A DNA stretch of 64,000 bases, taken from sequence record LC739536.1, one strand, 5' to 3'. The notes below the pieces were generated by a model. That model ran no database searches. It was not told the DNA's origin and saw nothing but the letters and a program-made list of their open reading frames with translations. Below are positions 4,227 to 20,299 of the stretch, piece after piece. Made by a program: the position numbers and the translations under genes. The DNA is from Escherichia phage phiWec187. Positions within the stretch are counted from its first letter, which is position 1. Every line of letters starts with the position of its first letter.

Positions 4227-5207
4227 ATGGCAAAGCCACAATACTACCCTGACTGGGCGACACAAACAGTAACCCTCCCAGGAACGGGAAACACAAACAA
4301 GATTAGACCAAAAGAAACCATCCGTAATGTTGGTATGGACTTTGGTCAGATTATGACTTGTGAAGAAATGAACTGGATCTTAAACAATATTGGGTCTTGG
4401 ATTCGCTATATGCAAGATGAATTCTTCCCAACATTGCCTACTACATATCTTCCTATAGTCGGTACTAAAATTACAATGGCAGGTGATGCTACAGGTGAAG
4501 TTACATGGAATGGTAATGCTGCTGTAACATTATCTATTCAAGTAGTAGATAACAGTCATAATCACTTATCAGCTAACATTACAGACGCAACATCGAACCA
4601 AGTTGTAGGAAATGTCCTTGTTAAGCGTGATAATGGTGGTGCTATCTATGCAGGTGATATTTACACTTGTGGTACAGGTGCTACAGATCCTGCAACATTA
4701 TTTTTTAGAAACTATAATGGACAAACAGTAGGCAATATGTCTTCTGAACCAGGTGCAGGTGGTCAACTCTATATTTATAGAATAAATCCATCTACTGGAG
4801 GAACATCTTGTGGAGTCCGTTTGTATGATGCAGGTTATGTTTTAATAGACAATCCTCGTTCTAATTCTGGTCAAGATACTGGCAATGGTAATGCTCTTGT
4901 AAGATTAGATTATCTTAACTCAAGACTAAACTCATTGCAAAGTACACTGCAAAATAATATTAACAACGTTAATAGCAACTTGCAAGGCCAAATTAATAAC
5001 ATTAACAATAGAGTTTCTTCTGTTGTGTCTTCTATCCGTCTAGGTACACGTATTAAAGCTGGTGTATCTGAATCTCCTTTCTATGCTGGTCACGTGATCA
5101 CAGGTTGGGGTTTTGGTGATAAGAAAGAACTTCGTGGTGCTTGGTATTGGTCTGCTCCGCTACAATATTACATTAATGGTAGGTGGATAACAGTAACCAA
5201 CGTTTAG
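4227..5207 (+). CDS. tail fibre protein (short fibre)
   Basis: Gly/Thr/Asn-rich beta-type sequence with a C-terminal heptad-like segment (LNSRLNSLQSTLQNNINNVNSNLQGQINNINNRV); RBS AAGGAG upstream. Confidence 0.5.
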   Translation: MAKPQYYPDWATQTVTLPGTGNTNKIRPKETIRNVGMDFGQIMTCEEMNWILNNIGSWIRYMQDEFFPTLPTTYLPIVGTKITMAGDATGEVTWNGNAAVTLSIQVVDNSHNHLSANITDATSNQVVGNVLVKRDNGGAIYAGDIYTCGTGATDPATLFFRNYNGQTVGNMSSEPGAGGQLYIYRINPSTGGTSCGVRLYDAGYVLIDNPRSNSGQDTGNGNALVRLDYLNSRLNSLQSTLQNNINNVNSNLQGQINNINNRVSSVVSSIRLGTRIKAGVSESPFYAGHVITGWGFGDKKELRGAWYWSAPLQYYINGRWITVTNV

Positions 5208-5219
5208 TAAGGAGAACAC

Positions 5220-5771
5220 ATGAAAAAAGATGTTATTTACACTGGCTTTGAACTATATCAACCAGAATTGACAGAAGAAAATGTCATCTATCTTTCAATA
5301 GGTGCTGGTTTTCTTAAAGATAAAGATGGTAATGATTGGTACGAAATTCAGAAATATTTATCCAAAAATTACCCTGATGCCTATTTCTTAACTCTAGATC
5401 ACAACAATGTAGTTGTTGCAGCTACGAAAGATGTTTCTACATATTTTCCCGCTGGTCTTACTGTTCTTGTAACATACAATGTTCCAGATAAAATAGAAGA
5501 AGAAAGCAACCTAGGGTCGTGGAGATATGACAATGGTAAGTTTATTTCTCATAATGGGTTTGCAATAGAAGATGCCAACCTTAAAATGGAAAAAGAATTA
5601 ACTTGGGCCACAAATCAAATATCTGCAATTCAAGATTTAGAGGAATTACAAGGTTTATCTGAAGAACAAAAAGATTGGTTAGGAAAAGTTAAACTCTATC
5701 GTGCAACATTAATTCAAATTAACGTTGAAGATGCACCTAATATAACTTGGCCTACAAGACCTAAGAAATAG
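5220..5771 (+). CDS. tail fibre assembly chaperone (Tfa-like)
   Basis: C-terminal DWLGKVKLYRATLIQINVEDAPNITWPTRP matches the Tfa C-terminal signature (W..YR..L..V......WP..P); directly follows a fibre gene. Confidence 0.6.
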   Translation: MKKDVIYTGFELYQPELTEENVIYLSIGAGFLKDKDGNDWYEIQKYLSKNYPDAYFLTLDHNNVVVAATKDVSTYFPAGLTVLVTYNVPDKIEEESNLGSWRYDNGKFISHNGFAIEDANLKMEKELTWATNQISAIQDLEELQGLSEEQKDWLGKVKLYRATLIQINVEDAPNITWPTRPKK

Positions 5772-10578: not shown

Positions 10579-13398
10579 ATGTATCCTATTCCTTTATTTA
10601 TGTCAACAACATCAGCTTCAGTAGTAACAGCTACATCTATAACTACTTCCTCTATTGGTATTGCAATAGTTGGTGGTAAAAAACAACTGACATACACAGT
10701 TACACCGGAAGATGGTGCATTATTTGATATAGCTTTTTCATCTTCAGATAATACCAAAATGGTTATAGATAATAGTGGTATGATGGAGTTTGTTGCCGAA
10801 GGTGGTTTTGATGCAATAATGACAGCTAAAAATAATTTAGGTGCTGTCTTAACTGATCAATCTGGTGGTTATGCTTCAGAATTAAGTGTGTACACTGAAA
10901 GTCTATCGGCTATGGATGTAGGCACTACTCAACAGTTGGTTGCTACAATCAGTCCAGAAGGTGCTAAAGACCTTCCAGATATGGTAATTACATACACCAC
11001 AACAGATCCAGAAGTAGCTACTGTAAGCCCTACAGGGTTAATAACTGCTCTTAAAGATGGCGGTTGCCGTATAGGTTGTACTGCAACGTATCAAGGAACA
11101 GTTGTGGCCTCTGATAGGTCTTATTTAGGTGTTAATGCTATTCCTGTTATTTCTAATGTAACAGCCGTGGCAAACAGTTATGGAGACGTTCGTGTTGCTT
11201 GGGATGTAACTGATCCGCTAGACGGTGATACTTATACTGTAGAAGTATTAGATTTAAGTAATAATAGTGTTCAGTGGACTACAACAACCACGAATACTTA
11301 CGCTTACTTTGATATCTCTGACTCTATTCCTCTTTATGGGTTTGCTCCAACATACCTTAAAATTAGCGTTAAGAGCACCAAAGCAGCAGCCGTTATCTTT
11401 AATAACTCAATAGCTACAGATGATTCGTTCATTAAAGAAGTTATTGTCTTTGCTGGACAAGATAACGTAAATGCACACTTTACAGAACTATCTGGTGCAA
11501 ATAAAGCAGCAATGAGTAGCACAACAGCCCGTAATGCATATGCCACGCAACGTGGTTTAGCAAATGCTGAAGTTCTTCCGTTAAATACAGCTTCTGGATC
11601 ATCAGCAGCAGATAAATATGCAGATGATAAAGCCGGAACAGGAACACCAGACAACTACTGGTATGATCTGGATAACACAGCAGATGGGCCATGCTTAACT
11701 AACTTTATCACTAAAGTCACACCTTATGCAAGTAAGGTTAAAGCCATTATTTGGGGACAAGGTGAAAATGATGCTGTATCAGCATCTTCGACTGTTGCAG
11801 GTAGGTACAGTAACACTACACGTTACCATGATGCTACGATAGCCATCTTTGATAAGATGCGTACAATAGTTCCTGCTTCTCAAGCAAAAATTGTTTGGCA
11901 GATCCTAGGACGTTCTTATTTATATGGTGTAGAAGTTAATGGTGTGGATTGGCAGAAGTACAGAAATGTACAAAGAACCATCTCTACAGCACGTGATGAT
12001 GTTATCATTGGTTCTTGGGTAGATGGTGCTGAACGTTACAGTGGTTATGTTTATGAAGAAGGTATTGATGGTCGTATCCATTATATTTCTTCTGTATACC
12101 AAACAGCAGCTACAAAACTTGCTAAATCAGCAGCAGACGGTACAGACTTAACATCAACGTCACCTGTTTGGGTTGATATGGCTGTTCCAACTGGAGCAAC
12201 AGCTACTTCCCAATCTAATCAAGATACAATTTTAGCATGGGATGCTCAAGGCTATAGTAAACACTACTTCCGTAATATTAACGTCTTAACCGCATCTGTA
12301 TTAACTGAACAAACGCTTAATACGAACAGTTATACGTTTACCTATGCAGATCAAGTAGCACAATATGGCTTTGCAGCAGGAACTACTATATTTGATGTTG
12401 CATATTATGACGAAGCAAATGATGTGTTATCTCCTTTAGTACGTTTTAATGTTAACGTTACAGCAGGAACCGTAGAAGATAAACCTGTAGTGATGGATTA
12501 TGATTTAACACAAGAAACTCTTCCATCAGATGTTAAGGTTAATGGTGGGAACTCTTTTGCTCGTACTTCTGGAGATACACTTGTAGCCACTAACACCTTG
12601 GTTGCTCCGTTGGAGTATATTGGTACTACCCCTGTAGGTAGACGTGTAACAGCTAACACAGCTACACAAATTTTTGTCAACAACGCCTTAACAAGTGCAA
12701 GCCCGTGGGTAAAGACCAACTTAACTGTTGCAGCTTCATCTGATAACTCTCCGGTTGGAACTACTGCTAATGTATTCAAATTAACTCCGACTACAACCTC
12801 TGGTAGTCATATCTTAACTGCAACATATACTAACGCGTACAACATATCTGCCGGACGTAACTGGTCTGCCTCTGTTTTCTTGAAAGCGAACGGGATTACT
12901 AAGGCCAAACTAAGATTAAAAGCAGGAACTGAAGTTAATGAGGGTACTTTTGATTTAGCAGCAGGTACATTCACAGGAAGTGAAGCTAATATTATATCTA
13001 TGGGCAACGGTTGGTATCGTGCTATTCTGCATAAAACAGGGATAGCCAAACAGTCCTCCATAAGTTTTGAAATAATTGCCTTGGATGCAACTGGTGCGGA
13101 GATTTTCGCTGGAGATGGTACTAGTAACCTTGCAGTTTGGTTGCCACAGCTTGAAGGTGCTTCTACAGGAGAAACATCAAAAGCTGGATCGCCTTATGTC
13201 TGCACATATCCTGGAAATTTAGGAGGAGTATCCTTCACTATACCAAGGAACGGACATACTGGTGTGGATGTTTACTATTCCAACGGAGACGTTGTTCGTG
13301 ACGTATTCTCTGGTACGGCATCTACTTGGACAATAAACTACTCCAGCTTGTACGATTGGGGATCAGTCTTTATTACAGGTTTGAAATATTACGACTAA
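10579..13398 (+). CDS. large tail fibre/receptor-binding protein with Ig-like (Big_2-type) domain and putative esterase-like domain
   Basis: 939 aa; Big_2-like segment (TQQLVATISPEGAKDLPDMVITYTTTDPEVATVSPTGLITALKDGGCRIGCTATY); IIWGQGENDA resembles SGNH/sialate-O-acetylesterase-type motifs (weak); terminator follows. Confidence 0.55.
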   Translation: MYPIPLFMSTTSASVVTATSITTSSIGIAIVGGKKQLTYTVTPEDGALFDIAFSSSDNTKMVIDNSGMMEFVAEGGFDAIMTAKNNLGAVLTDQSGGYASELSVYTESLSAMDVGTTQQLVATISPEGAKDLPDMVITYTTTDPEVATVSPTGLITALKDGGCRIGCTATYQGTVVASDRSYLGVNAIPVISNVTAVANSYGDVRVAWDVTDPLDGDTYTVEVLDLSNNSVQWTTTTTNTYAYFDISDSIPLYGFAPTYLKISVKSTKAAAVIFNNSIATDDSFIKEVIVFAGQDNVNAHFTELSGANKAAMSSTTARNAYATQRGLANAEVLPLNTASGSSAADKYADDKAGTGTPDNYWYDLDNTADGPCLTNFITKVTPYASKVKAIIWGQGENDAVSASSTVAGRYSNTTRYHDATIAIFDKMRTIVPASQAKIVWQILGRSYLYGVEVNGVDWQKYRNVQRTISTARDDVIIGSWVDGAERYSGYVYEEGIDGRIHYISSVYQTAATKLAKSAADGTDLTSTSPVWVDMAVPTGATATSQSNQDTILAWDAQGYSKHYFRNINVLTASVLTEQTLNTNSYTFTYADQVAQYGFAAGTTIFDVAYYDEANDVLSPLVRFNVNVTAGTVEDKPVVMDYDLTQETLPSDVKVNGGNSFARTSGDTLVATNTLVAPLEYIGTTPVGRRVTANTATQIFVNNALTSASPWVKTNLTVAASSDNSPVGTTANVFKLTPTTTSGSHILTATYTNAYNISAGRNWSASVFLKANGITKAKLRLKAGTEVNEGTFDLAAGTFTGSEANIISMGNGWYRAILHKTGIAKQSSISFEIIALDATGAEIFAGDGTSNLAVWLPQLEGASTGETSKAGSPYVCTYPGNLGGVSFTIPRNGHTGVDVYYSNGDVVRDVFSGTASTWTINYSSLYDWGSVFITGLKYYD

Positions 13399-13433: not shown

Positions 13434-13865
13434 TTAATCAGTGAAAATTACGCTCACATCTTCTTTAGAGAAGAGTTTATGATCTTCACCTTTTGTCTCA
13501 AGAGTTTCATACAGGTTAAGAAGTTCTGAAACATCTTTCTCTACCAGTTTCTTCAATGTTGCAATTTTCTGTTTGCGATTCTTAATACGTTCAGCTACAA
13601 CCTTACGTTGGTATCCGGCAGTACGATAACCTGAGAAAGTTACACCAGTAAGACTTGCAGTTACAGGATCGTAGTGACGTTCAATCTGAAATTTATTAAA
13701 AGGTACAGCGTCATCACGAATAATCTTACCGCCATTACTTACTTGACGAAGACCAGTAACTTGCTCAAGTCGTGCCATAGAAATCTTTGGAGACAGACCA
13801 GAATCCAGGTTCATACCGTTGTTAATCAGTGCTTTCAGGGTGATTTTGCTGTTCAGTGTACTCAT
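13434..13865 (-). CDS. hypothetical protein
   Basis: 143-aa ORF co-oriented with and just downstream of the methyltransferase; listed start overlaps the MTase 3' end, true start may be the internal Met at 13814. Confidence 0.4.
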   Translation of the reverse strand: MSTLNSKITLKALINNGMNLDSGLSPKISMARLEQVTGLRQVSNGGKIIRDDAVPFNKFQIERHYDPVTASLTGVTFSGYRTAGYQRKVVAERIKNRKQKIATLKKLVEKDVSELLNLYETLETKGEDHKLFSKEDVSVIFTD

Positions 13866-14553
13866 TTAGTCGTTCCTCCGCTTGCTTAAAAATATTTACA
13901 TCGGCTTCACAGCCTAAGTATTCTCTACCTGTTAAAAGTGCCGCAACTTGTGTTGTTGCACTTCCAGAGAAGAAGTCTAAGACTACATCTCCTTCGTTGG
14001 TGTGTATATTAATAAGGTCACAAAACAAAGTCAAGTGTTTTTGTGTTGGATGAAAACGATCTGCTCCTTGATAGATAGGATACTCGAACACACCCTTATG
14101 GTAGGAAGCATTGAAGGTTGGCTTCGAACCTTTAACACAAACAATAGCCATCTCTTTAGCGTTACTAAGGTAGTTAACACCACTGTTGATGGGTACAGGG
14201 TTTGTTTTAATCCATTCAATAGTACGGAACATACGAAAACCAAGCGGTTCAAGGATTTCACGTAGCTCCTGGATCTTCCAGATATCATACCAAACTATAC
14301 AAGTACCACCTTTTCTAAGCACCCTGTAGGCTTCTTTGAATACTTCTTTAAAGTAAGGAATATCTACAACATCCCAATCACCAAAGTTGTAAGATACACG
14401 GAATCTATCCGTATCTTTTCCAGTCGGCTCTCCAGATTGAAAATTTGTGTCACGAGAAATAGCATATGGTGGGTCAGTAAGAATCAAATCTACACTATTG
14501 CTTTCGAGGGTTTGCAGGTAGTTTAACGCGGTGTTGTTTACAAATTCGCTCAT
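13822..14553 (-). CDS. DNA methyltransferase (N6-adenine or N4-cytosine, beta class)
   Basis: DPPY motif (LILTDPPYAI) preceding an AdoMet-binding-like FFSGSATT segment, the order typical of beta-class amino-MTases. Confidence 0.8.
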   Translation of the reverse strand: MSEFVNNTALNYLQTLESNSVDLILTDPPYAISRDTNFQSGEPTGKDTDRFRVSYNFGDWDVVDIPYFKEVFKEAYRVLRKGGTCIVWYDIWKIQELREILEPLGFRMFRTIEWIKTNPVPINSGVNYLSNAKEMAIVCVKGSKPTFNASYHKGVFEYPIYQGADRFHPTQKHLTLFCDLINIHTNEGDVVLDFFSGSATTQVAALLTGREYLGCEADVNIFKQAEERLNEYTEQQNHPESTD

Positions 14554-14571: not shown

Positions 14572-14591
14572 AAGGAGCCGTTAGGCTCCTT
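14572..14591 (-). terminator. hairpin/terminator upstream of the MTase gene, near-identical to the one at 13404
   Basis: aaggagcc-gtta-ggctcctt; same stem as 13404-13423. Confidence 0.5.
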
Positions 14592-14613
14592 ATATTTACA
14601 CAATATTTAACTA

Positions 14614-15561
14614 TTAGAAACAGTGCAGGAAGTTTCGACCATACTGCAAACCAATAGGAGCAAATGGGATATCATCATCGAAATCTTGAACAACAGGTTC
14701 TGGCTCTTTCGGTGCTGGCTCTTTCTTCTCTACTTTTTTAGTTTCTTTCTTAACTTCTTGTACCGGGGTAGACATTCCACGGATAGCAGCAGCTACTTTA
14801 TCAGACAAAGCAAGAACTTCACGAGCAGCTTCAATAATCTCTTCTGCCGTTACAGTCTTACCTGTATGATCACGACAAGCGTTAAGAATTGCGTGTCCAA
14901 CTGAAGCACCAAGATCATAGTCAGTCACATCAACGCCACGATCTTTAGCAATTTCTGCTTTCAGAGTAACAGTTGCAGATTGTACCACACCAGCCAAGTC
15001 GAAAGCATCACCTTTCACACCAGCACGTAGAAGCTCCAGAGCGCCGTTCACAGCGTGTCCTGTTTCAATCCCCACGGTATCACGTTTTTTGTAGTTAGGC
15101 TTGTTACCGTCATTATTAGATGGCTTATTTCCACCTTTTGAAGAGGATTGCGCTTGCTGAACACCTTCTGTTGAAAGAATAGTGATTTTACCTTTAGAGG
15201 AATTGTAGTATGTTTTGCCATTCCATTCAGAAGGTTTAACATCCATAGTTAGTTCTACACCTTTTTCGATAGTAACCCACTTGTCACCATCTTTAACTTG
15301 CAGGTTTTCATGTTCTGGATGCAGTTTAACTTCACCTAGGCTAACCCAAACACCTTTATCATCAGCACTAGCACCTTTCTCTTTAATAAGCAGAGATGCT
15401 TTGTGAGTTGATTCAATTTTCTTATCTGGCTGACCTGCAACCTTAATATAAGAGACTTTCATTTCATCAAACTTATCCAGTTTGACATATTCAACGATAC
15501 CTTCAGCCCAGAATGCTTCTTTTTTAGTACGACGGTCGATTTCAGAATTAATTACTGGCAT
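14614..15561 (-). CDS. SSB-like protein carrying an E. coli SSB-type acidic tip motif
   Basis: 315 aa; DFDDDIPF (identical to the bacterial SSB C-terminal tip) lies 15 residues before the stop; Gly/Asn/Lys-rich linker upstream; OB-fold not verifiable by eye. Confidence 0.45.
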   Translation of the reverse strand: MPVINSEIDRRTKKEAFWAEGIVEYVKLDKFDEMKVSYIKVAGQPDKKIESTHKASLLIKEKGASADDKGVWVSLGEVKLHPEHENLQVKDGDKWVTIEKGVELTMDVKPSEWNGKTYYNSSKGKITILSTEGVQQAQSSSKGGNKPSNNDGNKPNYKKRDTVGIETGHAVNGALELLRAGVKGDAFDLAGVVQSATVTLKAEIAKDRGVDVTDYDLGASVGHAILNACRDHTGKTVTAEEIIEAAREVLALSDKVAAAIRGMSTPVQEVKKETKKVEKKEPAPKEPEPVVQDFDDDIPFAPIGLQYGRNFLHCF

Positions 15562-15577
15562 AAATTCTCCTCTATAA

Positions 15578-15976
15578 TTACATTACTTTAACACAAAACT
15601 CTCGTAAAAGAGTAGCGTCAGTTTCTTCCAACAGGTATTTACCAAGACCAATACCAAATCCTATTTCACCACTTTCGAAATGGAGGATTTGTATCTTTTC
15701 TCCACCAAGGTTAATTACTTTTGCTTTTCCAGGATTATCCAAAACATCTCGTATTGTATCCTGTAGTAGCATTAGTTCACGTTTTGTGATAGTGGTTTCA
15801 GATATCTCTTTGTTTTCTACTCTCACTGTTAAACGGTTGTATCCACCAAAGAGACATAGTATTTGAATAAAAAAGGTATTATCTTGAGGTTCAACATCTT
15901 TTTTAGTTAACTCAAGACGATTAGTTTCTCTACTATAGAACGTCTCGACTAAGATTTTAGAACGATTATCTGTCAT
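15578..15976 (-). CDS. hypothetical protein
   Basis: 132-aa ORF in the replication block. Confidence 0.4.
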   Translation of the reverse strand: MTDNRSKILVETFYSRETNRLELTKKDVEPQDNTFFIQILCLFGGYNRLTVRVENKEISETTITKRELMLLQDTIRDVLDNPGKAKVINLGGEKIQILHFESGEIGFGIGLGKYLLEETDATLLREFCVKVM

Positions 15977-16019
15977 TCAAGTCCTCATAATAACACATAA
16001 TTATAATGTTTGTCAACAC

Positions 16020-16613
16020 TTAAATTTTAAATTCTTCACTGTTAAATGAATCCAGTGTACGTACTTCTGGTTCTTTGGGAATGAAAACGTCTTTTACAAA
16101 GCGGAACATAGGGAAACGTTCTGCCATTTTACGGACGTGTGCTTCTTTACCTGTGTATCGGTGATTAATAGTACAAATATTAGTTTTCAGTGCAAATTCA
16201 AAATCTGGATGATATACATAATTTTGACCATCCCAGTAACACAAGCAAATAGCTACATCAAAGTTCCATACGATTTCACTGCGTACACCTTCTTCCATAA
16301 TCATAAAGTTAAACTTAAGATCTTTATAGTATGCTTCAAATACCCATTTCAAATGCGGTAGTTCGGCATAAGTGTGTTCTGTTTGCTTAGTAAGTTGTTT
16401 AACATTACGTGCACCAACACCCAACATCAAAAATTTCTCTACTAATACGATTGTATTGTGGTTAGGCATACGCAAGTAAATATCAATATCTTGCGCAGGT
16501 TTCTCTAATCGCCAATCACGTACAGCGCCGCCAGCTACAATTGCAAACGGATCTACCAGTTGGCACATACGTAATACTTCTAAAGCTCGTACTTTTTGAT
16601 CTTCAATATTCAT
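16020..16613 (-). CDS. minimal nucleotidyltransferase (CCA-adding/poly(A) polymerase head-domain-like)
   Basis: AGGAVRDWRL followed by DIDIY, matching the GGxVRD...DxD signature of the Pol-beta-type tRNA nucleotidyltransferase head domain; only 197 aa. Confidence 0.5.
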   Translation of the reverse strand: MNIEDQKVRALEVLRMCQLVDPFAIVAGGAVRDWRLEKPAQDIDIYLRMPNHNTIVLVEKFLMLGVGARNVKQLTKQTEHTYAELPHLKWVFEAYYKDLKFNFMIMEEGVRSEIVWNFDVAICLCYWDGQNYVYHPDFEFALKTNICTINHRYTGKEAHVRKMAERFPMFRFVKDVFIPKEPEVRTLDSFNSEEFKI

Positions 16614-16750: not shown

Positions 16751-19700
16751 TCAATGACAACTAGCCCATGAGTTACCAACATCGTAACCAGCAGTGAGAG
16801 GTACATTAAGATTGTAATACTCACCAGCTTTATTAACAGCGATAGATGCTAATTCTCCAGCACGACTGTAGGCTGTAAACCAACCACCTTTCGGAGATTC
16901 ATGTACGTTAGCCCAAATCTTGCCAGTACGTTTCTCTTCCTCTTCTTTCCAGGTATTAACTTTATCCAAACATTCTTTATCAATTTTCTTTTGTTCTTCT
17001 GGATCATCAACTTGAGTCCAACCTAAAGATTCTTTAGAGAACCATTTAAAATGCACCAGATCACGAGTTACTTCAAGCTGTGCTTCATCGTGATATGCAA
17101 TCATTTGTTGAACGAATGACTTATTTTTCCAGTCATCAACAAAAAAGTCAACAGCTAATCCTTCTTCTTCGATAAGATCGTCGTAGATAACCATTGCTCT
17201 TTTTGCACAAATAACACCACCACTCTGGAACAGAGAGTTAAGTATTGCGTGTGCAGATCGTGTAGGTACTTTTCTACCATCAATACCGAGAATGTATTTC
17301 TTACCTGTTTTAACCCAAAAATCATGCAGACGTTCTTTAAGAAGCGCAAGAGGTTTTGCAGCTTCCCAGAAAGCATCGTATACAAGCTGTCCTGTATACA
17401 TATCACTACCTATAGTTTTTGCTACTTTTGCAGCTTGAGCGCCGTACGTGCAGTTACCTGTCAACGTGATAAAACCATTCTGACGCATAACAAAAGATTC
17501 ATTCTTGGTTGAGATACAGAATACATCTGTTACTCGTGAAAAAGCTCTTGTCAACCTCTGTCCTGAAATAGTTTGTCCGTTATTGATTGCCAACGTTAAC
17601 ATGCCATCTTTTTGAACAGAACCATACGCAATATTACCTGTCATATTGATAGCCAAAGAAACAGCGTCGCTAATCTTACCTTTCTTTTGACGGATAACAA
17701 GACTGCCGTTTGGACGCTTATGACCATCTGCCATCCAGAATGCCTCTAAGAATGCTTCCAACACAGCTTGACCTTGATTAGCAATTAATGTAGACCAGTC
17801 CACTTCGTGCTTATTTTGACCCACTTCAACGCCACATTTAGTCAAAAATTCCCTAAACTGACTCTTATTAGGACGTAATGAATGCATCGTTCCAGATACA
17901 TACTCGTCAAATGTGAAGATATCTCCCACAGCCTCACGTGCTTCTTCTAAGAATTTTTTCTCATCTTGATCTACCGTGACTGTAATACCCATTACTTTAT
18001 TTCTGGCTTTGCCAGACCACTTATAGTAGCCATCCGAAAGAAGCCAGCCTAAGAAACGACCTTCTTCCACTGTTAGAGTAGACACCACACCAGATCGCCC
18101 TGCTGCAATTATGTTTGACTCCGAGTTTAAATCCTCTGTAGATCTACGCTCCACTTGCATATACTTAACATTGTTACCATCTGATCGCATAGTTTTTCTC
18201 TGTGCGTTAATCCACATATGATCGTTAGTAACTTCTACTTTGAACCACTTGTTACCGAGAGAGACAACTTCTGCATCGTTATAGTCCCACAGCTTAAGAA
18301 TAGGGGTATATTCGTAAAGAGCGGTGTGAGTATTATAAGATAAAACTTCATCCCCTACAAAAAGATCTTTACGTTTCTTCCAACCCGTTCTTGTTAACAC
18401 TTCCGTATTATCTACAGGTACACAACCGTATTTAACGCTCTTAGCAGGACCACGTTCAAACTTACGTCCAATAATATCAGTAATATGTTTTGCCATCATA
18501 GTATGCACATCGTTTGGTTTTTCTAACAGAAGTGCATTACAGTAAGCATGATCAGGATTATCATATCTCCACGTATAATGCGACTCAATCTTCGCCTCTA
18601 ATGAATCAAAGTCATAACCAATCTGGAAGTATTTAGGAACCTCTACACCAAATAAGTTACGCATTTCATATCCGTACAGAGATGTTACACGTGGGATATT
18701 TGCTACTAACCTATGTTTCATACGAGATGTAGCTGCATCACACGTTGCAGCAGGAGTTGGTATACGACCATCAGCCCTTACTGCTGCCAGATAACCTTTA
18801 TCGTAATCCTCTTCTTCTTCCCAATCAGCACCACCCCCTAGAATAGAGTTCCTACGGTGTTTATACGTAAGATACTGCACAACCTGCGTAGCATAAGGAA
18901 ACTTTTCACCTAGTGCTTCCAAGTTAGGACAAATATCTTTCTCTTGCCCTTTTGTAAAGGAAGGGTTAGTAAGCACTTTAACACCACGACCTTTAGCTTT
19001 AGCAATACGATCTCTTAGTTTCCATTCCAAAGTTTCTGGTGTGCACTCCAGATGATCACATCTGTCCTGGCAGAAATTAGATGCTAATGTTTGATCAACA
19101 TAGTCACGAATGGCTTTCTCCATTTGTGCTTCATCTTTCTTAATCTTAGTGCCAGATTTAAGAGTGATATCTTTATCTTTATATTCAGATGGACTCCAAC
19201 CTAAACCAACTAACCAATTTTTAATATGTGTTGTGTCGTCTAAAGTAGCAGGTACTGTAGGATCACAAATAGGTTCTTCTGCTGGAATAGGTAGTTTAAA
19301 CTCTTTACCTAATGCAAATAACCACCAACCATCTTCTTTTTGTACAAGTTCACCAGAATGTTTCTCTGCAAACTTTATCATGTTACTTGAAGGTTCACCA
19401 TTCTTTTTAAACTGTAGTTTAGGTGGAATGAATGATTTCAAATAACCTTTAGTAGCAGGTTTAGGAGGTAGCACAGGTTCTGCCTCTAAACGACATGCTT
19501 CCATTCGAGCATCCAGATCACGAATATTATCTTCTGCTTGTTTCATGTTGAAAGCAAAGCCACGGTGCTCTTGACGTGTAATAATATCAGCTACACGTTG
19601 TTCTAAGTTAAATGGTTCAGACCACTTATTATAATCACCCCACTCTTCCATCAAATAACGGAACACTGCGGTGTTAGCTTTGTTATCGTAAATACAGTAA

Positions 19701-20299
19701 TACAGCATATCTGCTGCAAATGTTCTAAATCTTTCAGTTTCAGGGATGTTTTTTCTGAAATCAATTTTAACATCCCCTCCAGCTTTCTTAGATAACTCTG
19801 CCAGACTATGACCACCGAAGCGATCAGGGTTTAGTGTCTTACTTAAGATCATAGTATCACAAATTTCAATGTTACTATTACCCCAAGTATTGTACTTAAT
19901 ACTGTAGTTGAGTTTAAAAAATAATTTAATTGCCAGTAAGTCGAAGTTAATGATGTTGTGTCCAACTACTTTGGTAATTTTATAGTTTGAATTACCTTTA
20001 AATTTACCTGTTCCGTTTACAAAATCAGGAAAATCTTTAAGAGGGAAATGGGTATATTCTAAATGCTCATATTCCTCCAGTCGGTATTCATACTTTCCGT
20101 CAGTCTCAACATACGGACGACCATCGAAAAGATATTTATCACCATCATGGAAAGCAATAATCTCTCCAGTATCATGACTTTCGCACACAATACAGTGCAT
20201 TGCAAAACTATCTTTTAAACGATATGGACTTGCCAAGTAATCTACACTTTCGTCATTAAGCAAGTTGTTACTTTCAATGTCGAAAGTAAAAGCTCCCAT
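16751..20299 (-). CDS. family A DNA polymerase with N-terminal 3'-5' exonuclease, interrupted by an intein
   Basis: Motif B region RGPAKSVKYG...CTYGAQAAK split by a 324-aa insert; motif C AYHDEAQLE; N-terminal exonuclease-like FDIESN. Confidence 0.85.
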   Translation of the reverse strand: MGAFTFDIESNNLLNDESVDYLASPYRLKDSFAMHCIVCESHDTGEIIAFHDGDKYLFDGRPYVETDGKYEYRLEEYEHLEYTHFPLKDFPDFVNGTGKFKGNSNYKITKVVGHNIINFDLLAIKLFFKLNYSIKYNTWGNSNIEICDTMILSKTLNPDRFGGHSLAELSKKAGGDVKIDFRKNIPETERFRTFAADMLYYCIYDNKANTAVFRYLMEEWGDYNKWSEPFNLEQRVADIITRQEHRGFAFNMKQAEDNIRDLDARMEACRLEAEPVLPPKPATKGYLKSFIPPKLQFKKNGEPSSNMIKFAEKHSGELVQKEDGWWLFALGKEFKLPIPAEEPICDPTVPATLDDTTHIKNWLVGLGWSPSEYKDKDITLKSGTKIKKDEAQMEKAIRDYVDQTLASNFCQDRCDHLECTPETLEWKLRDRIAKAKGRGVKVLTNPSFTKGQEKDICPNLEALGEKFPYATQVVQYLTYKHRRNSILGGGADWEEEEDYDKGYLAAVRADGRIPTPAATCDAATSRMKHRLVANIPRVTSLYGYEMRNLFGVEVPKYFQIGYDFDSLEAKIESHYTWRYDNPDHAYCNALLLEKPNDVHTMMAKHITDIIGRKFERGPAKSVKYGCVPVDNTEVLTRTGWKKRKDLFVGDEVLSYNTHTALYEYTPILKLWDYNDAEVVSLGNKWFKVEVTNDHMWINAQRKTMRSDGNNVKYMQVERRSTEDLNSESNIIAAGRSGVVSTLTVEEGRFLGWLLSDGYYKWSGKARNKVMGITVTVDQDEKKFLEEAREAVGDIFTFDEYVSGTMHSLRPNKSQFREFLTKCGVEVGQNKHEVDWSTLIANQGQAVLEAFLEAFWMADGHKRPNGSLVIRQKKGKISDAVSLAINMTGNIAYGSVQKDGMLTLAINNGQTISGQRLTRAFSRVTDVFCISTKNESFVMRQNGFITLTGNCTYGAQAAKVAKTIGSDMYTGQLVYDAFWEAAKPLALLKERLHDFWVKTGKKYILGIDGRKVPTRSAHAILNSLFQSGGVICAKRAMVIYDDLIEEEGLAVDFFVDDWKNKSFVQQMIAYHDEAQLEVTRDLVHFKWFSKESLGWTQVDDPEEQKKIDKECLDKVNTWKEEEEKRTGKIWANVHESPKGGWFTAYSRAGELASIAVNKAGEYYNLNVPLTAGYDVGNSWASCH
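17453..18424 (-). mobile_element. intein with LAGLIDADG-type homing endonuclease inside DNA polymerase motif B
   Basis: Begins CVPVDNTEVL (intein block A), ends ...LTGN with +1 Cys; internal GWLLSDGYY and LEAFWMADGH resemble the two LAGLIDADG helices; removal restores K-x3-YG-x2-YG. Confidence 0.75.

Follow-up and report, generated by a model that had tools for sequence, protein, structure and literature searches.

In bacterial genome maintenance, the C-terminal tip of SSB serves as the central hub for recruitment. In E. coli the SSB tail (...MDFDDDIPF-COOH) is the docking site for about 20 SSB-interacting proteins, and structural work on the ExoI, RecQ, chi and PriA complexes has identified the terminal carboxylate as a key contact; the textbook view holds that the last Phe has to be a free C-terminus. 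Several phage proteins are relevant to this system. The SSB of HK620 provides a precedent for a phage SSB tail tuned to a particular partner, in that its NDYPPF tail brings in the phage annealase Sak4, with the six terminal residues being those that count (PMC5928155); the motif there lies at the extreme C-terminus and no extension follows it. Bas52_0087 of the rV5-like phage RudolfGeigy is an SSB-like trigger of the DRT10 reverse-transcriptase defence, described as having two OB-fold domains and an oligomer interface that is predicted only (bioRxiv 10.64898/2026.04.29.721553). HK75 gp31, an SSB that will recur below, has been called uncharacterized (bioRxiv 10.64898/2026.07.10.737580).

Here we analyze an SSB-like gene in a 64,000-nucleotide stretch of Escherichia phage phiWec187 (LC739536.1), which we refer to as the window. 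The gene, a homologue of phi92 gp156, has an ATG start and encodes 315 amino acids before its stop (Table 1). Residues 293-300 are specified by GAT TTC GAT GAT GAT ATC CCA TTT and read DFDDDIPF, the octapeptide with which E. coli SSB ends; EPPMDFDDDIPF is the E. coli SSB C-terminus in PDB 1eqq. In E. coli SSB, however, the tip is terminal, whereas here it is followed by 15 sense codons (APIGLQYGRNFLHCF) and only then by TAA TAG, so that the tip Phe, F300, is not the last residue of the protein and has no free alpha-carboxylate. The preliminary description of this DNA had proposed both that the octapeptide is internal, 15 residues before the stop, and that it is identical to the bacterial SSB tip; the ORF list and our reading of the DNA bear out the one, and the match to 1eqq the other. 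It had also put a Gly/Asn/Lys-rich linker ahead of the tip. A G/N/K-rich stretch does exist at about residues 131-160, but it joins the OB and four-helix domains, while the segment directly before the tip (261-292) is rich in K, E and P.

Table 1. Features of the SSB-like gene and its surroundings, in window positions
Feature	Position	Strand	Basis
SSB-like gene (phi92 gp156 homologue)	14614..15561	-	ORF list, PHROG 4477, Justusliebigvirus relatives
N-terminal beta domain, residues 1-130, OB fold (predicted)	15172..15561	-	
Disordered G/N/K/S-rich inter-domain linker, residues 131-160	15082..15171	-	pLDDT 45-64 and sequence
Four-helix domain, residues 161-260	14782..15081	-	Helices with pLDDT >90, near-invariant residues
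K/E/P-rich disordered tail linker, residues 261-292	14686..14781	-	pLDDT 55-68
Internal SSB tip DFDDDIPF, residues 293-300	14662..14685	-	DNA read; E. coli SSB C-terminus identical
15-residue extension APIGLQYGRNFLHCF, residues 301-315	14617..14661	-	DNA read; one instance of the tail module
+1-frame mini-ORF, ATG to TAA (MVETSCTVSNS, then stop), 11 codons, inside and just past the extension	14607..14642	-	Three-frame translation, window vs locus L001
Intrinsic terminator hairpin, directly 3' of the SSB gene	14572..14591	-	
Ribosome-binding site GAGGAG, 5 nt 5' of the ATG	15567..15572	-	Sequence; phi92 annotation has an RBS at this site
Sigma-70-like promoter candidate, upstream of the preceding ORF (15578-15976)	15987..16016	-	11/12 consensus match only

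ORF132 and the SSB gene are possibly driven by the promoter candidate. Downstream of the SSB gene the window has the terminator and then a methyltransferase gene.

Since most homologues, as well as the PHROG 4477 and 7364 profiles, end at IPF, a sequencing or annotation error that hides a true stop at that point had to be considered. However, the region has 95-99% DNA identity in 55 phage records of the phi92 group (Justusliebigvirus), which come from many laboratories, and in the ten of these that we sampled, including phi92 gp156, the frame is the same and the proteins (96-99.7% identity to the window protein) align over residues 1-315 with the tail unchanged. The protein of BASEL phage JohannJBalmer has 99.7% identity. 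Between phi92 gp156 and the window protein 12 residues and 24 nucleotides differ, none of them in the tip or the extension, and more than 140 further loci have the same motif. A sequencing error, which the preliminary description had named as the finding that would undo it, is therefore excluded, and we consider the artefact reading refuted. The stretch of 15 residues behind DFDDDIPF is a genuine portion of the gene and is translated with it.

A Pfam search with the window protein gave no match, the PF00436 OB domain being undetectable by sequence, and a PADLOC search also gave none. PHROG 4477, a family of unknown function, matches at E = 4.6e-101 with a profile that ends at residue 300, the tip Phe. 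An AlphaFold2 model (37 homologues, mean pLDDT 83) has a beta domain, a disordered linker, a four-helix domain (helices 163-179, 186-208, 215-230 and 239-260, all with pLDDT >90) and a disordered tail (261-315). This architecture and the lack of a Pfam match indicate that the protein is an RPA32/SSB-like OB fold joined to a four-helix domain, and not a PF00436 SSB like that of E. coli. What it does share with canonical SSB is a disordered linker followed by the acidic tip. The extension itself has a pLDDT of about 50 and no contact to the folded domains in the model. The four-helix domain is the best-conserved part of the family, in which D161, G164, G168, H169, N172, G218 and G222 are nearly invariant. 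Bas52_0087 belongs here as well: it matches PHROG 4477 at 1.1e-173, has 33-42% identity over the OB and helical domains of the window protein, and carries the tip as FDDDIPF, and its escape mutation D252V aligns with the conserved D161. In contrast to the window protein, it is 408 aa long and ends exactly at IPF, with no extension.

The extension recurs well beyond the phi92 group. The homologue set of the window protein comprised 100 homologues and 98 clusters with a recognisable tip; 78 of the clusters stop at PF or one residue later, and the other 20 are extended. Almost all extended clusters follow one pattern (e.g., APIGLQYGRNFLHCF, APIGLQYGMNLLHAMP, APVGLQYARHAISALYA, SPLGLQYPNHSMYALYA, ASLGLQYASHAIHAIF, APIGLPYGRNFIHCI and APIGLMYNNAYIHCI), two are more divergent (AYAGLQY... 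and ANPMRLSAGLYLAI), and no unrelated read-through sequence was seen after the tip in any of the 98. We define the tail module as DD[IV]PF followed directly by A-P-[IV]-[GT]-L-x-[YF] and then by 7-9 residues with a hydrophobic end, the whole extension being 14-16 aa long. The window tail, DDDIPF-APIGLQY, fits this definition (tested with A-P-[IVLF]-[GT]-L-x-[YF]), and its 15-aa extension, ending in L-H-C-F, fits the 14-16 aa with a [IL]-x-[VCA]-[ILMF] end. A second copy of the motif was not found elsewhere in the window.

A DNA-pattern scan of IMG/VR for DD[ILV]PF-x-P-x-G-L-x-Y returned at least 120 loci. Among the matches listed, 111 proteins could be clustered, and these were 107 canonical SSBs (about 120-250 aa), three rV5-like proteins and one further scaffold of 155 aa. 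A 179-aa SSB of phrog_7364, a family whose profile likewise stops at IPF, has the tail PPMDFDDDIPF-APIGLQYGRNLLHVI. A profile search with a 42-aa tail alignment, which returned short fragments only and hence gives no census, detected further variants in E. coli, Salmonella and Klebsiella (APVTLPFPRHAIHAI and others), which trace to the PF00436 SSBs of HK75 (gp31), epsilon34 (gp35), mEp235, mEpX2 and their relatives, where the SSB gene sits in an Erf-SSB-Abc2 operon. HK75 gp31 and epsilon34 gp35 have the same kind of tail as the window protein, EPPMDFDDDIPF and then APVTLPFPRHAIHAI, although they come from temperate phages, their DNA-binding domain has no detectable similarity to that of the window protein, and the C-terminal half of the extension is different. 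When an evenly spaced sample of phage SSBs was taken, six of the 27 whose alignment reached the tail went past the tip; the extension was verified in BUCT618 and Vibrio K290, and Skarpretter, also checked, ends at IPF. One form, APIGLQYGKSRIYAL, occurs both on two rV5-like proteins and on an ORF of canonical length, with near-identical forms in BUCT618 and EmilHeitz. In all, the module is found on at least four scaffolds without detectable similarity outside the tail, namely PF00436 SSBs of lambdoid and other prophages, the phi92/rV5 family, phrog_7364 and one more. It is a conserved, selected and laterally mobile module common to many phage SSBs, and not an idiosyncratic read-through.

The PF00436 SSBs that carry the module are those of lambdoid and other prophages (HK75, epsilon34, Proteus and Vibrio). 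Variants of the C-terminal half of the extension fall into groups by host taxon, with ends such as PYPRHAIYVI and MYPRHLINVI in Proteus and Providencia, QYPALLNCM in Vibrio and Pseudoalteromonas, PFPRHAIHAI in the lambdoid phages of E. coli and Salmonella, and QYGRNF[LI]HC[FI] and QYGKSRIYAL in E. coli myophages. Phylogenetic inertia of the phages could be an alternative cause of this grouping.

We also looked for the module in cellular genomes. A scan of one genome per species over 185,579 species, which detects only the G-L-x-Y form of the motif and leaves other variants and other strains outside its reach, gave 19 matches, in Proteus, Providencia, Moellerella, Sodalis, Vibrio, Pseudoalteromonas, Oceanisphaera, Glaciecola and a few others. 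Seventeen of the 19 share neighbour genes with viral contigs and one, in Micrarchaeota, is a chance match; no uvrA-sized ORF lies beside any of the 19, and the bacterial-genome matches that we checked have prophage-like neighbourhoods. No cellular housekeeping ssb with the extension was found in the scan of 185,579 species for the G-L-x-Y form. In the collections searched, therefore, the module appears to be confined to phages and prophages, and it is probably incompatible with the essential hub function of a cellular SSB.

Several observations indicate that the extension is maintained as a peptide. For this analysis we used 83 distinct extension DNAs encoding 52 peptides, all of 14-16 aa, with Nei-Gojobori-type counts. 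Across the extension pN/pS was 0.32 in the SSB frame, vs 1.35 and 1.72 in the shifted frames; for the C-terminal codons not fixed by the search pattern the corresponding values were 0.54, vs 0.90 and 1.25. The residue after the tip Phe, whose codon the search pattern does not constrain, is Ala in 80 of the 83 DNAs, and all four codons are used (GCT, GCG, GCC and GCA, 27, 27, 18 and 8 times, respectively); position 3 is Ile in 74. All extension-bearing proteins that were detected through whole-protein homology have kept an intact tip, [DE]x[DE]D[IV]PF. Phage Mt1B1_P17 provides a particularly clear comparison, as all 15 residues of its extension are identical to those of the window, with six nucleotide differences that are all synonymous in the SSB frame. 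Third-position identity between the two is 0.67 in the extension and 0.56-0.70 in the rest of the gene, and amino acid identity is 57% in the OB domain and 44% in the tail linker. Because all 15 residues are kept while third positions have diverged as in the rest of the gene, the extension, together with the tip, is among the most constrained stretches of the protein. By these counts purifying selection acts on it at the protein level, in the frame of the SSB.

How the module moves is suggested by its association with HNH endonuclease genes. On a neighbour-joining tree of the 98 family clusters, the very patchy distribution of the extension over 20 of them takes at least 15 gains or losses to explain. 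Mt1B1_P17 and ukendt, which belong to the same genus and have nearly identical SSB bodies, differ by one insertion of about 520 bp right after the IPF codon. The insertion consists of the extension and a Zn-ribbon HNH endonuclease gene, and this cassette is the only local difference between the two phages; since near-identical phages exist with and without the extension, it is dispensable. A hairpin homologous to the window terminator is found 3' of the SSB gene in ukendt and 3' of the endonuclease gene in Mt1B1_P17. The real start of the HNH gene is the ATG within caA TAT Ggt, the codons for Q-Y-G, read in the +1 frame; this ATG lies about 29 codons 5' of the annotated start and is where the alignment with homologues begins. 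At no fewer than six loci on three SSB scaffolds, EmilHeitz among them, the endonuclease starts 28 nt before the SSB stop; at two further loci it also overlaps the extension and starts about 20 nt before the stop. HNH genes, related or other, abut extension-less SSB genes too (AV125, NDO71, Shigella 2KOFFS and three more loci). The arrangement resembles that of free-standing HNH homing endonucleases (T4 seg/mob type; I-KsaII-like), in that Zn-ribbon HNH genes lie at SSB 3' ends in many phages and co-vary with the extension in the phi92/rV5 family, where five of the six extension-bearing lineages compared as DNA also carry the endonuclease. Homing thus seems to favour the 3' ends of SSB genes, and the extension could plausibly have been carried along by gene conversion that the endonuclease drives, with homing activity itself inferred from the sequences; hitch-hiking of this kind adds to the spread of the extension.

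The window differs from these phages in that it has no HNH ORF at the SSB 3' end. It retains the endonuclease-type ATG inside the extension, yet only 11 codons can be read from it in the +1 frame. Homology to the cassette breaks off exactly at the SSB stop, and next comes the terminator usual in the family, so the window has the extension without the endonuclease. One could read this as a scar, the SSB frame having run into the 5' edge of an inserted HNH gene that was later lost from phi92-like phages, and the Mt1B1_P17/ukendt comparison speaks for such a scar. The shared position of the ATG on three scaffolds, its persistence in the window with 10 further codons, and the many HNH genes that adjoin SSB 3' ends all agree with it. 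However, most extension-bearing prophage SSBs have no endonuclease downstream; the DNA-pattern scan yielded more than 100 prophage SSBs that have this tail but lack the endonuclease. Selection acts on the SSB frame and not on that of the endonuclease, in which two of the window/Mt1B1_P17 extension differences are non-synonymous, and the break in homology falls precisely at the SSB stop codon. For the first two reasons the scar is largely refuted as a sole explanation, and we consider it very improbable that the extension is a mere passenger.

What, then, could the extension do? The preliminary description had offered three roles, namely that the extension is removed, that it masks the tip as a regulated or decoy form, or that the phage sequesters host SSB partners with the motif, and each of these is still a candidate. 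We suggest that the tip has been joined to a second short linear motif for interaction, the extension. The extension would put a peptide bond in place of the free Phe carboxylate and add a hydrophobic strand with a Pro kink (I-x-L-x-Y) and a short C-terminus that is amphipathic and hydrophobic. A docking tip that is generic and of host type would thereby become a bipartite epitope that selects its partners differently. Ordinary host SSB-interacting proteins, in so far as they dock through the carboxylate, would bind less well, and one host factor would be bound with more specificity and thus be either recruited or blocked on phage ssDNA. Such a factor would probably be an SSB-tip binder itself, for example a nuclease, a helicase or a defence sensor, and the module would be an optional accessory outside the core replication function. 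We put the probability of a bipartite linear motif that shifts the choice of partner by the SSB tail towards a host factor at roughly 40%. More tentatively, and with some doubt, we propose that tip and extension together form a phage-specific, SSB-tethered peptide in which the tip anchors and the extension gives specificity, capturing or blocking one host SSB-tip binder on phage ssDNA as a laterally mobile counter-defence or hijack module for any SSB scaffold.

Several points bear on the choice of partner. The module sits on folds without detectable sequence similarity, and therefore the SSB body is not its partner. The tip is conserved even though it is internal, which argues that it is still used, although it may be dead unless it is unmasked. 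By sequence inspection the genes beside extension-bearing SSBs are heterogeneous (Erf-, RecT-, Sak4- and RdgC-like recombinases, methyltransferases and integrases), and no common phage-encoded partner was found among them; given these varied neighbours, and since no gene has to be acquired along with the extension to account for the Mt1B1_P17/ukendt pair, the phages are unlikely to encode a dedicated partner. The grouping of the C-terminal half by host taxon, with the alternative cause given above, speaks for a host factor. An optional and patchy module of this kind resembles accessory host-interaction or counter-defence modules, by analogy. The low pLDDT and lack of domain contact in the model are what would be expected of a linear motif, but are not positive evidence for one. 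We know of no convincing fit of the extension to the beta-clamp-binding motif (QL[SD]LF), the PIP-box, the ClpX C-motifs or the FtsZ C-terminal peptide.

Other functions have to be weighed against this bipartite motif. The extension might be a removable cap, a pro-peptide under which the tip is inactive; cleavage of the F300-A301 bond by a protease of the host or the phage would then free the Phe carboxylate at the right time or place. CtpA removes a short piece of 8-16 aa from the C-terminus of the photosystem II D1 precursor and so exposes a functionally required carboxylate; the likeness, a short C-terminal extension hiding a carboxylate, is an analogy only, as the proteins and the compartment are unrelated. 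Conservation that peaks on both sides of the junction (DDIPF on one, APIGLxY on the other) and decays towards the C-terminus is as expected for a recognition site, and full conservation of an internal tip and the tightly held length of 14-16 aa are also in keeping with a cap. However, the carriers are as different as lambdoid prophages and 150-kb myophages and have no obvious protease in common, the sequences compared give no evidence of cleavage, and to our knowledge no cytoplasmic protease has a specificity for such an F-A junction. We therefore think a cap unlikely, though still worth serious consideration.

Distinctly less can be said for a C-terminal degron, in which the hydrophobic end ([IL]-x-[VCA]-[ILMF]-COOH) would send the phage SSB to an ATP-dependent protease and so limit the amount or lifetime of a competitor of the host SSB. 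The last four positions are consistently non-polar or small, some variants end in ...ALYA or ...YAL, recalling ssrA-like tails, and the module is optional and phage-specific, but the resemblance to ssrA-like tails is compositional only (a hydrophobic end), with no match to a defined ClpX C-motif shown, and a degron would leave the near-invariant A-P-I-G-L-x-Y abutting the tip, and its strict juxtaposition with F300, without explanation. It seems to us improbable. That the extension acts as a nascent peptide or a translational-coupling element, regulating the downstream gene and having no role in the mature protein, we find hardly credible: the tail is Pro-rich and downstream ORFs sometimes start inside the extension, but in the window a terminator follows directly, and most prophages have 10-100 nt between the stop and the start of the next gene, whose identity varies.

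A search of the literature available found no description of the extension, its function or its motif strings, and among PDB sequences there was no solved chain with the extension, every match ending at IPF; as far as these searches tell, the module has not been described so far. Annotation of these proteins is affected because the profiles of these SSB families stop at IPF. The clustering of HNH homing endonucleases at SSB 3' ends offers a possible mechanism by which tails are shuffled between unrelated SSB genes.

In roughly one fifth of the phage SSB genes in the samples examined, a perfect tip is buried under a conserved peptide of 14-16 residues, and no cellular SSB was found in this state. 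HK75, epsilon34 and JohannJBalmer are tractable phages that bear the tip-plus-extension tail. The finding bears on recombineering, which exploits the specificity of SSB tails, and on how SSB-sensing defence systems see phages, given that a relative of the window protein triggers DRT10. Buried phage tips point to an unrecognised re-programming, timing or sabotage of the SSB hub during infection.

The unit that contains the SSB gene of the window is closed by a GGAGCC-nnnn-GGCTCC hairpin, and the same hairpin ends the SSB unit in both phi92-like and Phapecoctavirus genomes. It is present with or without the extension (the residues that follow the DFDDDIPF tip) or an endonuclease gene, as seen in the window, in L001 (Mt1B1_P17) and in the compared record L002. 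On the downstream side, an N6/N4 DNA methyltransferase gene adjoins the terminator, and its 3' end is overlapped by a 143-aa ORF that had no match in the Pfam search. By sequence inspection, methyltransferase-like genes are also often next downstream of prophage SSBs that carry the extension. Upstream, the SSB gene is preceded by a nucleotidyltransferase-like ORF and a conserved 132-aa ORF, in the same order as in Phapecoctavirus genomes.

The family-A DNA polymerase of the window, for which PF00476 was the sole Pfam match, is 1182 aa long, versus ~865 aa annotated for its Mt1B1_P17 homologue. It contains an insertion of ~320 aa, beginning C-VPVDNTEVL... and ending ...LTGN|C, that looks like an intein. 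Elsewhere in the window, the 939-aa Big_2 protein probably forms part of a tail fibre or spike.

Post-tip extension variants are also found on canonical SSBs, in long-sequenced lambdoid and other phages: APVTLPFPRHAIHAI, ATIGLQYGKSRIYAL and APIGLQYPAIVHCM.

Features of the window and of compared phage loci
Feature	Sequence	Coordinates	Strand	Basis
Protein with Big_2 Ig-like domain	window	10579-13398	+	ORF list; domain match
143-aa ORF	window	13434-13865	-	
Methyltransferase gene	window	13822-14553	-	PF01555
Terminator hairpin + T-run	window	14572-14591		
Terminator hairpin + T-run	L002	~4905-4930		
Terminator hairpin + T-run	L001	~5405-5430		
132-aa ORF	window	15578-15976	-	
Nucleotidyltransferase-like ORF	window	16020-16613	-	weak PolyA_pol head-domain match
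Polymerase ORF	window	16751-20299	-	ORF list; weak PF00476 match
Region upstream of annotated gp117 start	L001	4905-4991		alignment of homologues
HNH gene at SSB 3' end	L001	4905-5399		
HNH gene at SSB 3' end	L003	2507-2938		
HNH gene at SSB 3' end	L004	2516-2941		
HNH gene at SSB 3' end	L005	2510-2902		
HNH gene at SSB 3' end	L006	2501-3124		
Extended canonical SSB, HK75 gp31	L181	2160-2666		
Extended canonical SSB, epsilon34 gp35	L182	1659-2165		
Extended canonical SSB, Vibrio K290	L184			
Extended canonical SSB, BUCT618	L185			

In Mt1B1_P17, the annotated start of the gp117 'endonuclease' is an internal ATG; the alignment of gp117 homologues begins ~29 codons further upstream, at a CxxC Zn-ribbon, and the true start likely lies within the SSB extension. 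In many unrelated phages, HNH (Zn-ribbon) homing-endonuclease genes directly adjoin an SSB gene at its 3' end or overlap that end, and besides the tabulated examples they are likewise placed in loci L100, L121, L129, L148, L162, L164 and L165. The conserved tip-coding DNA of SSB genes may serve as a homing target.
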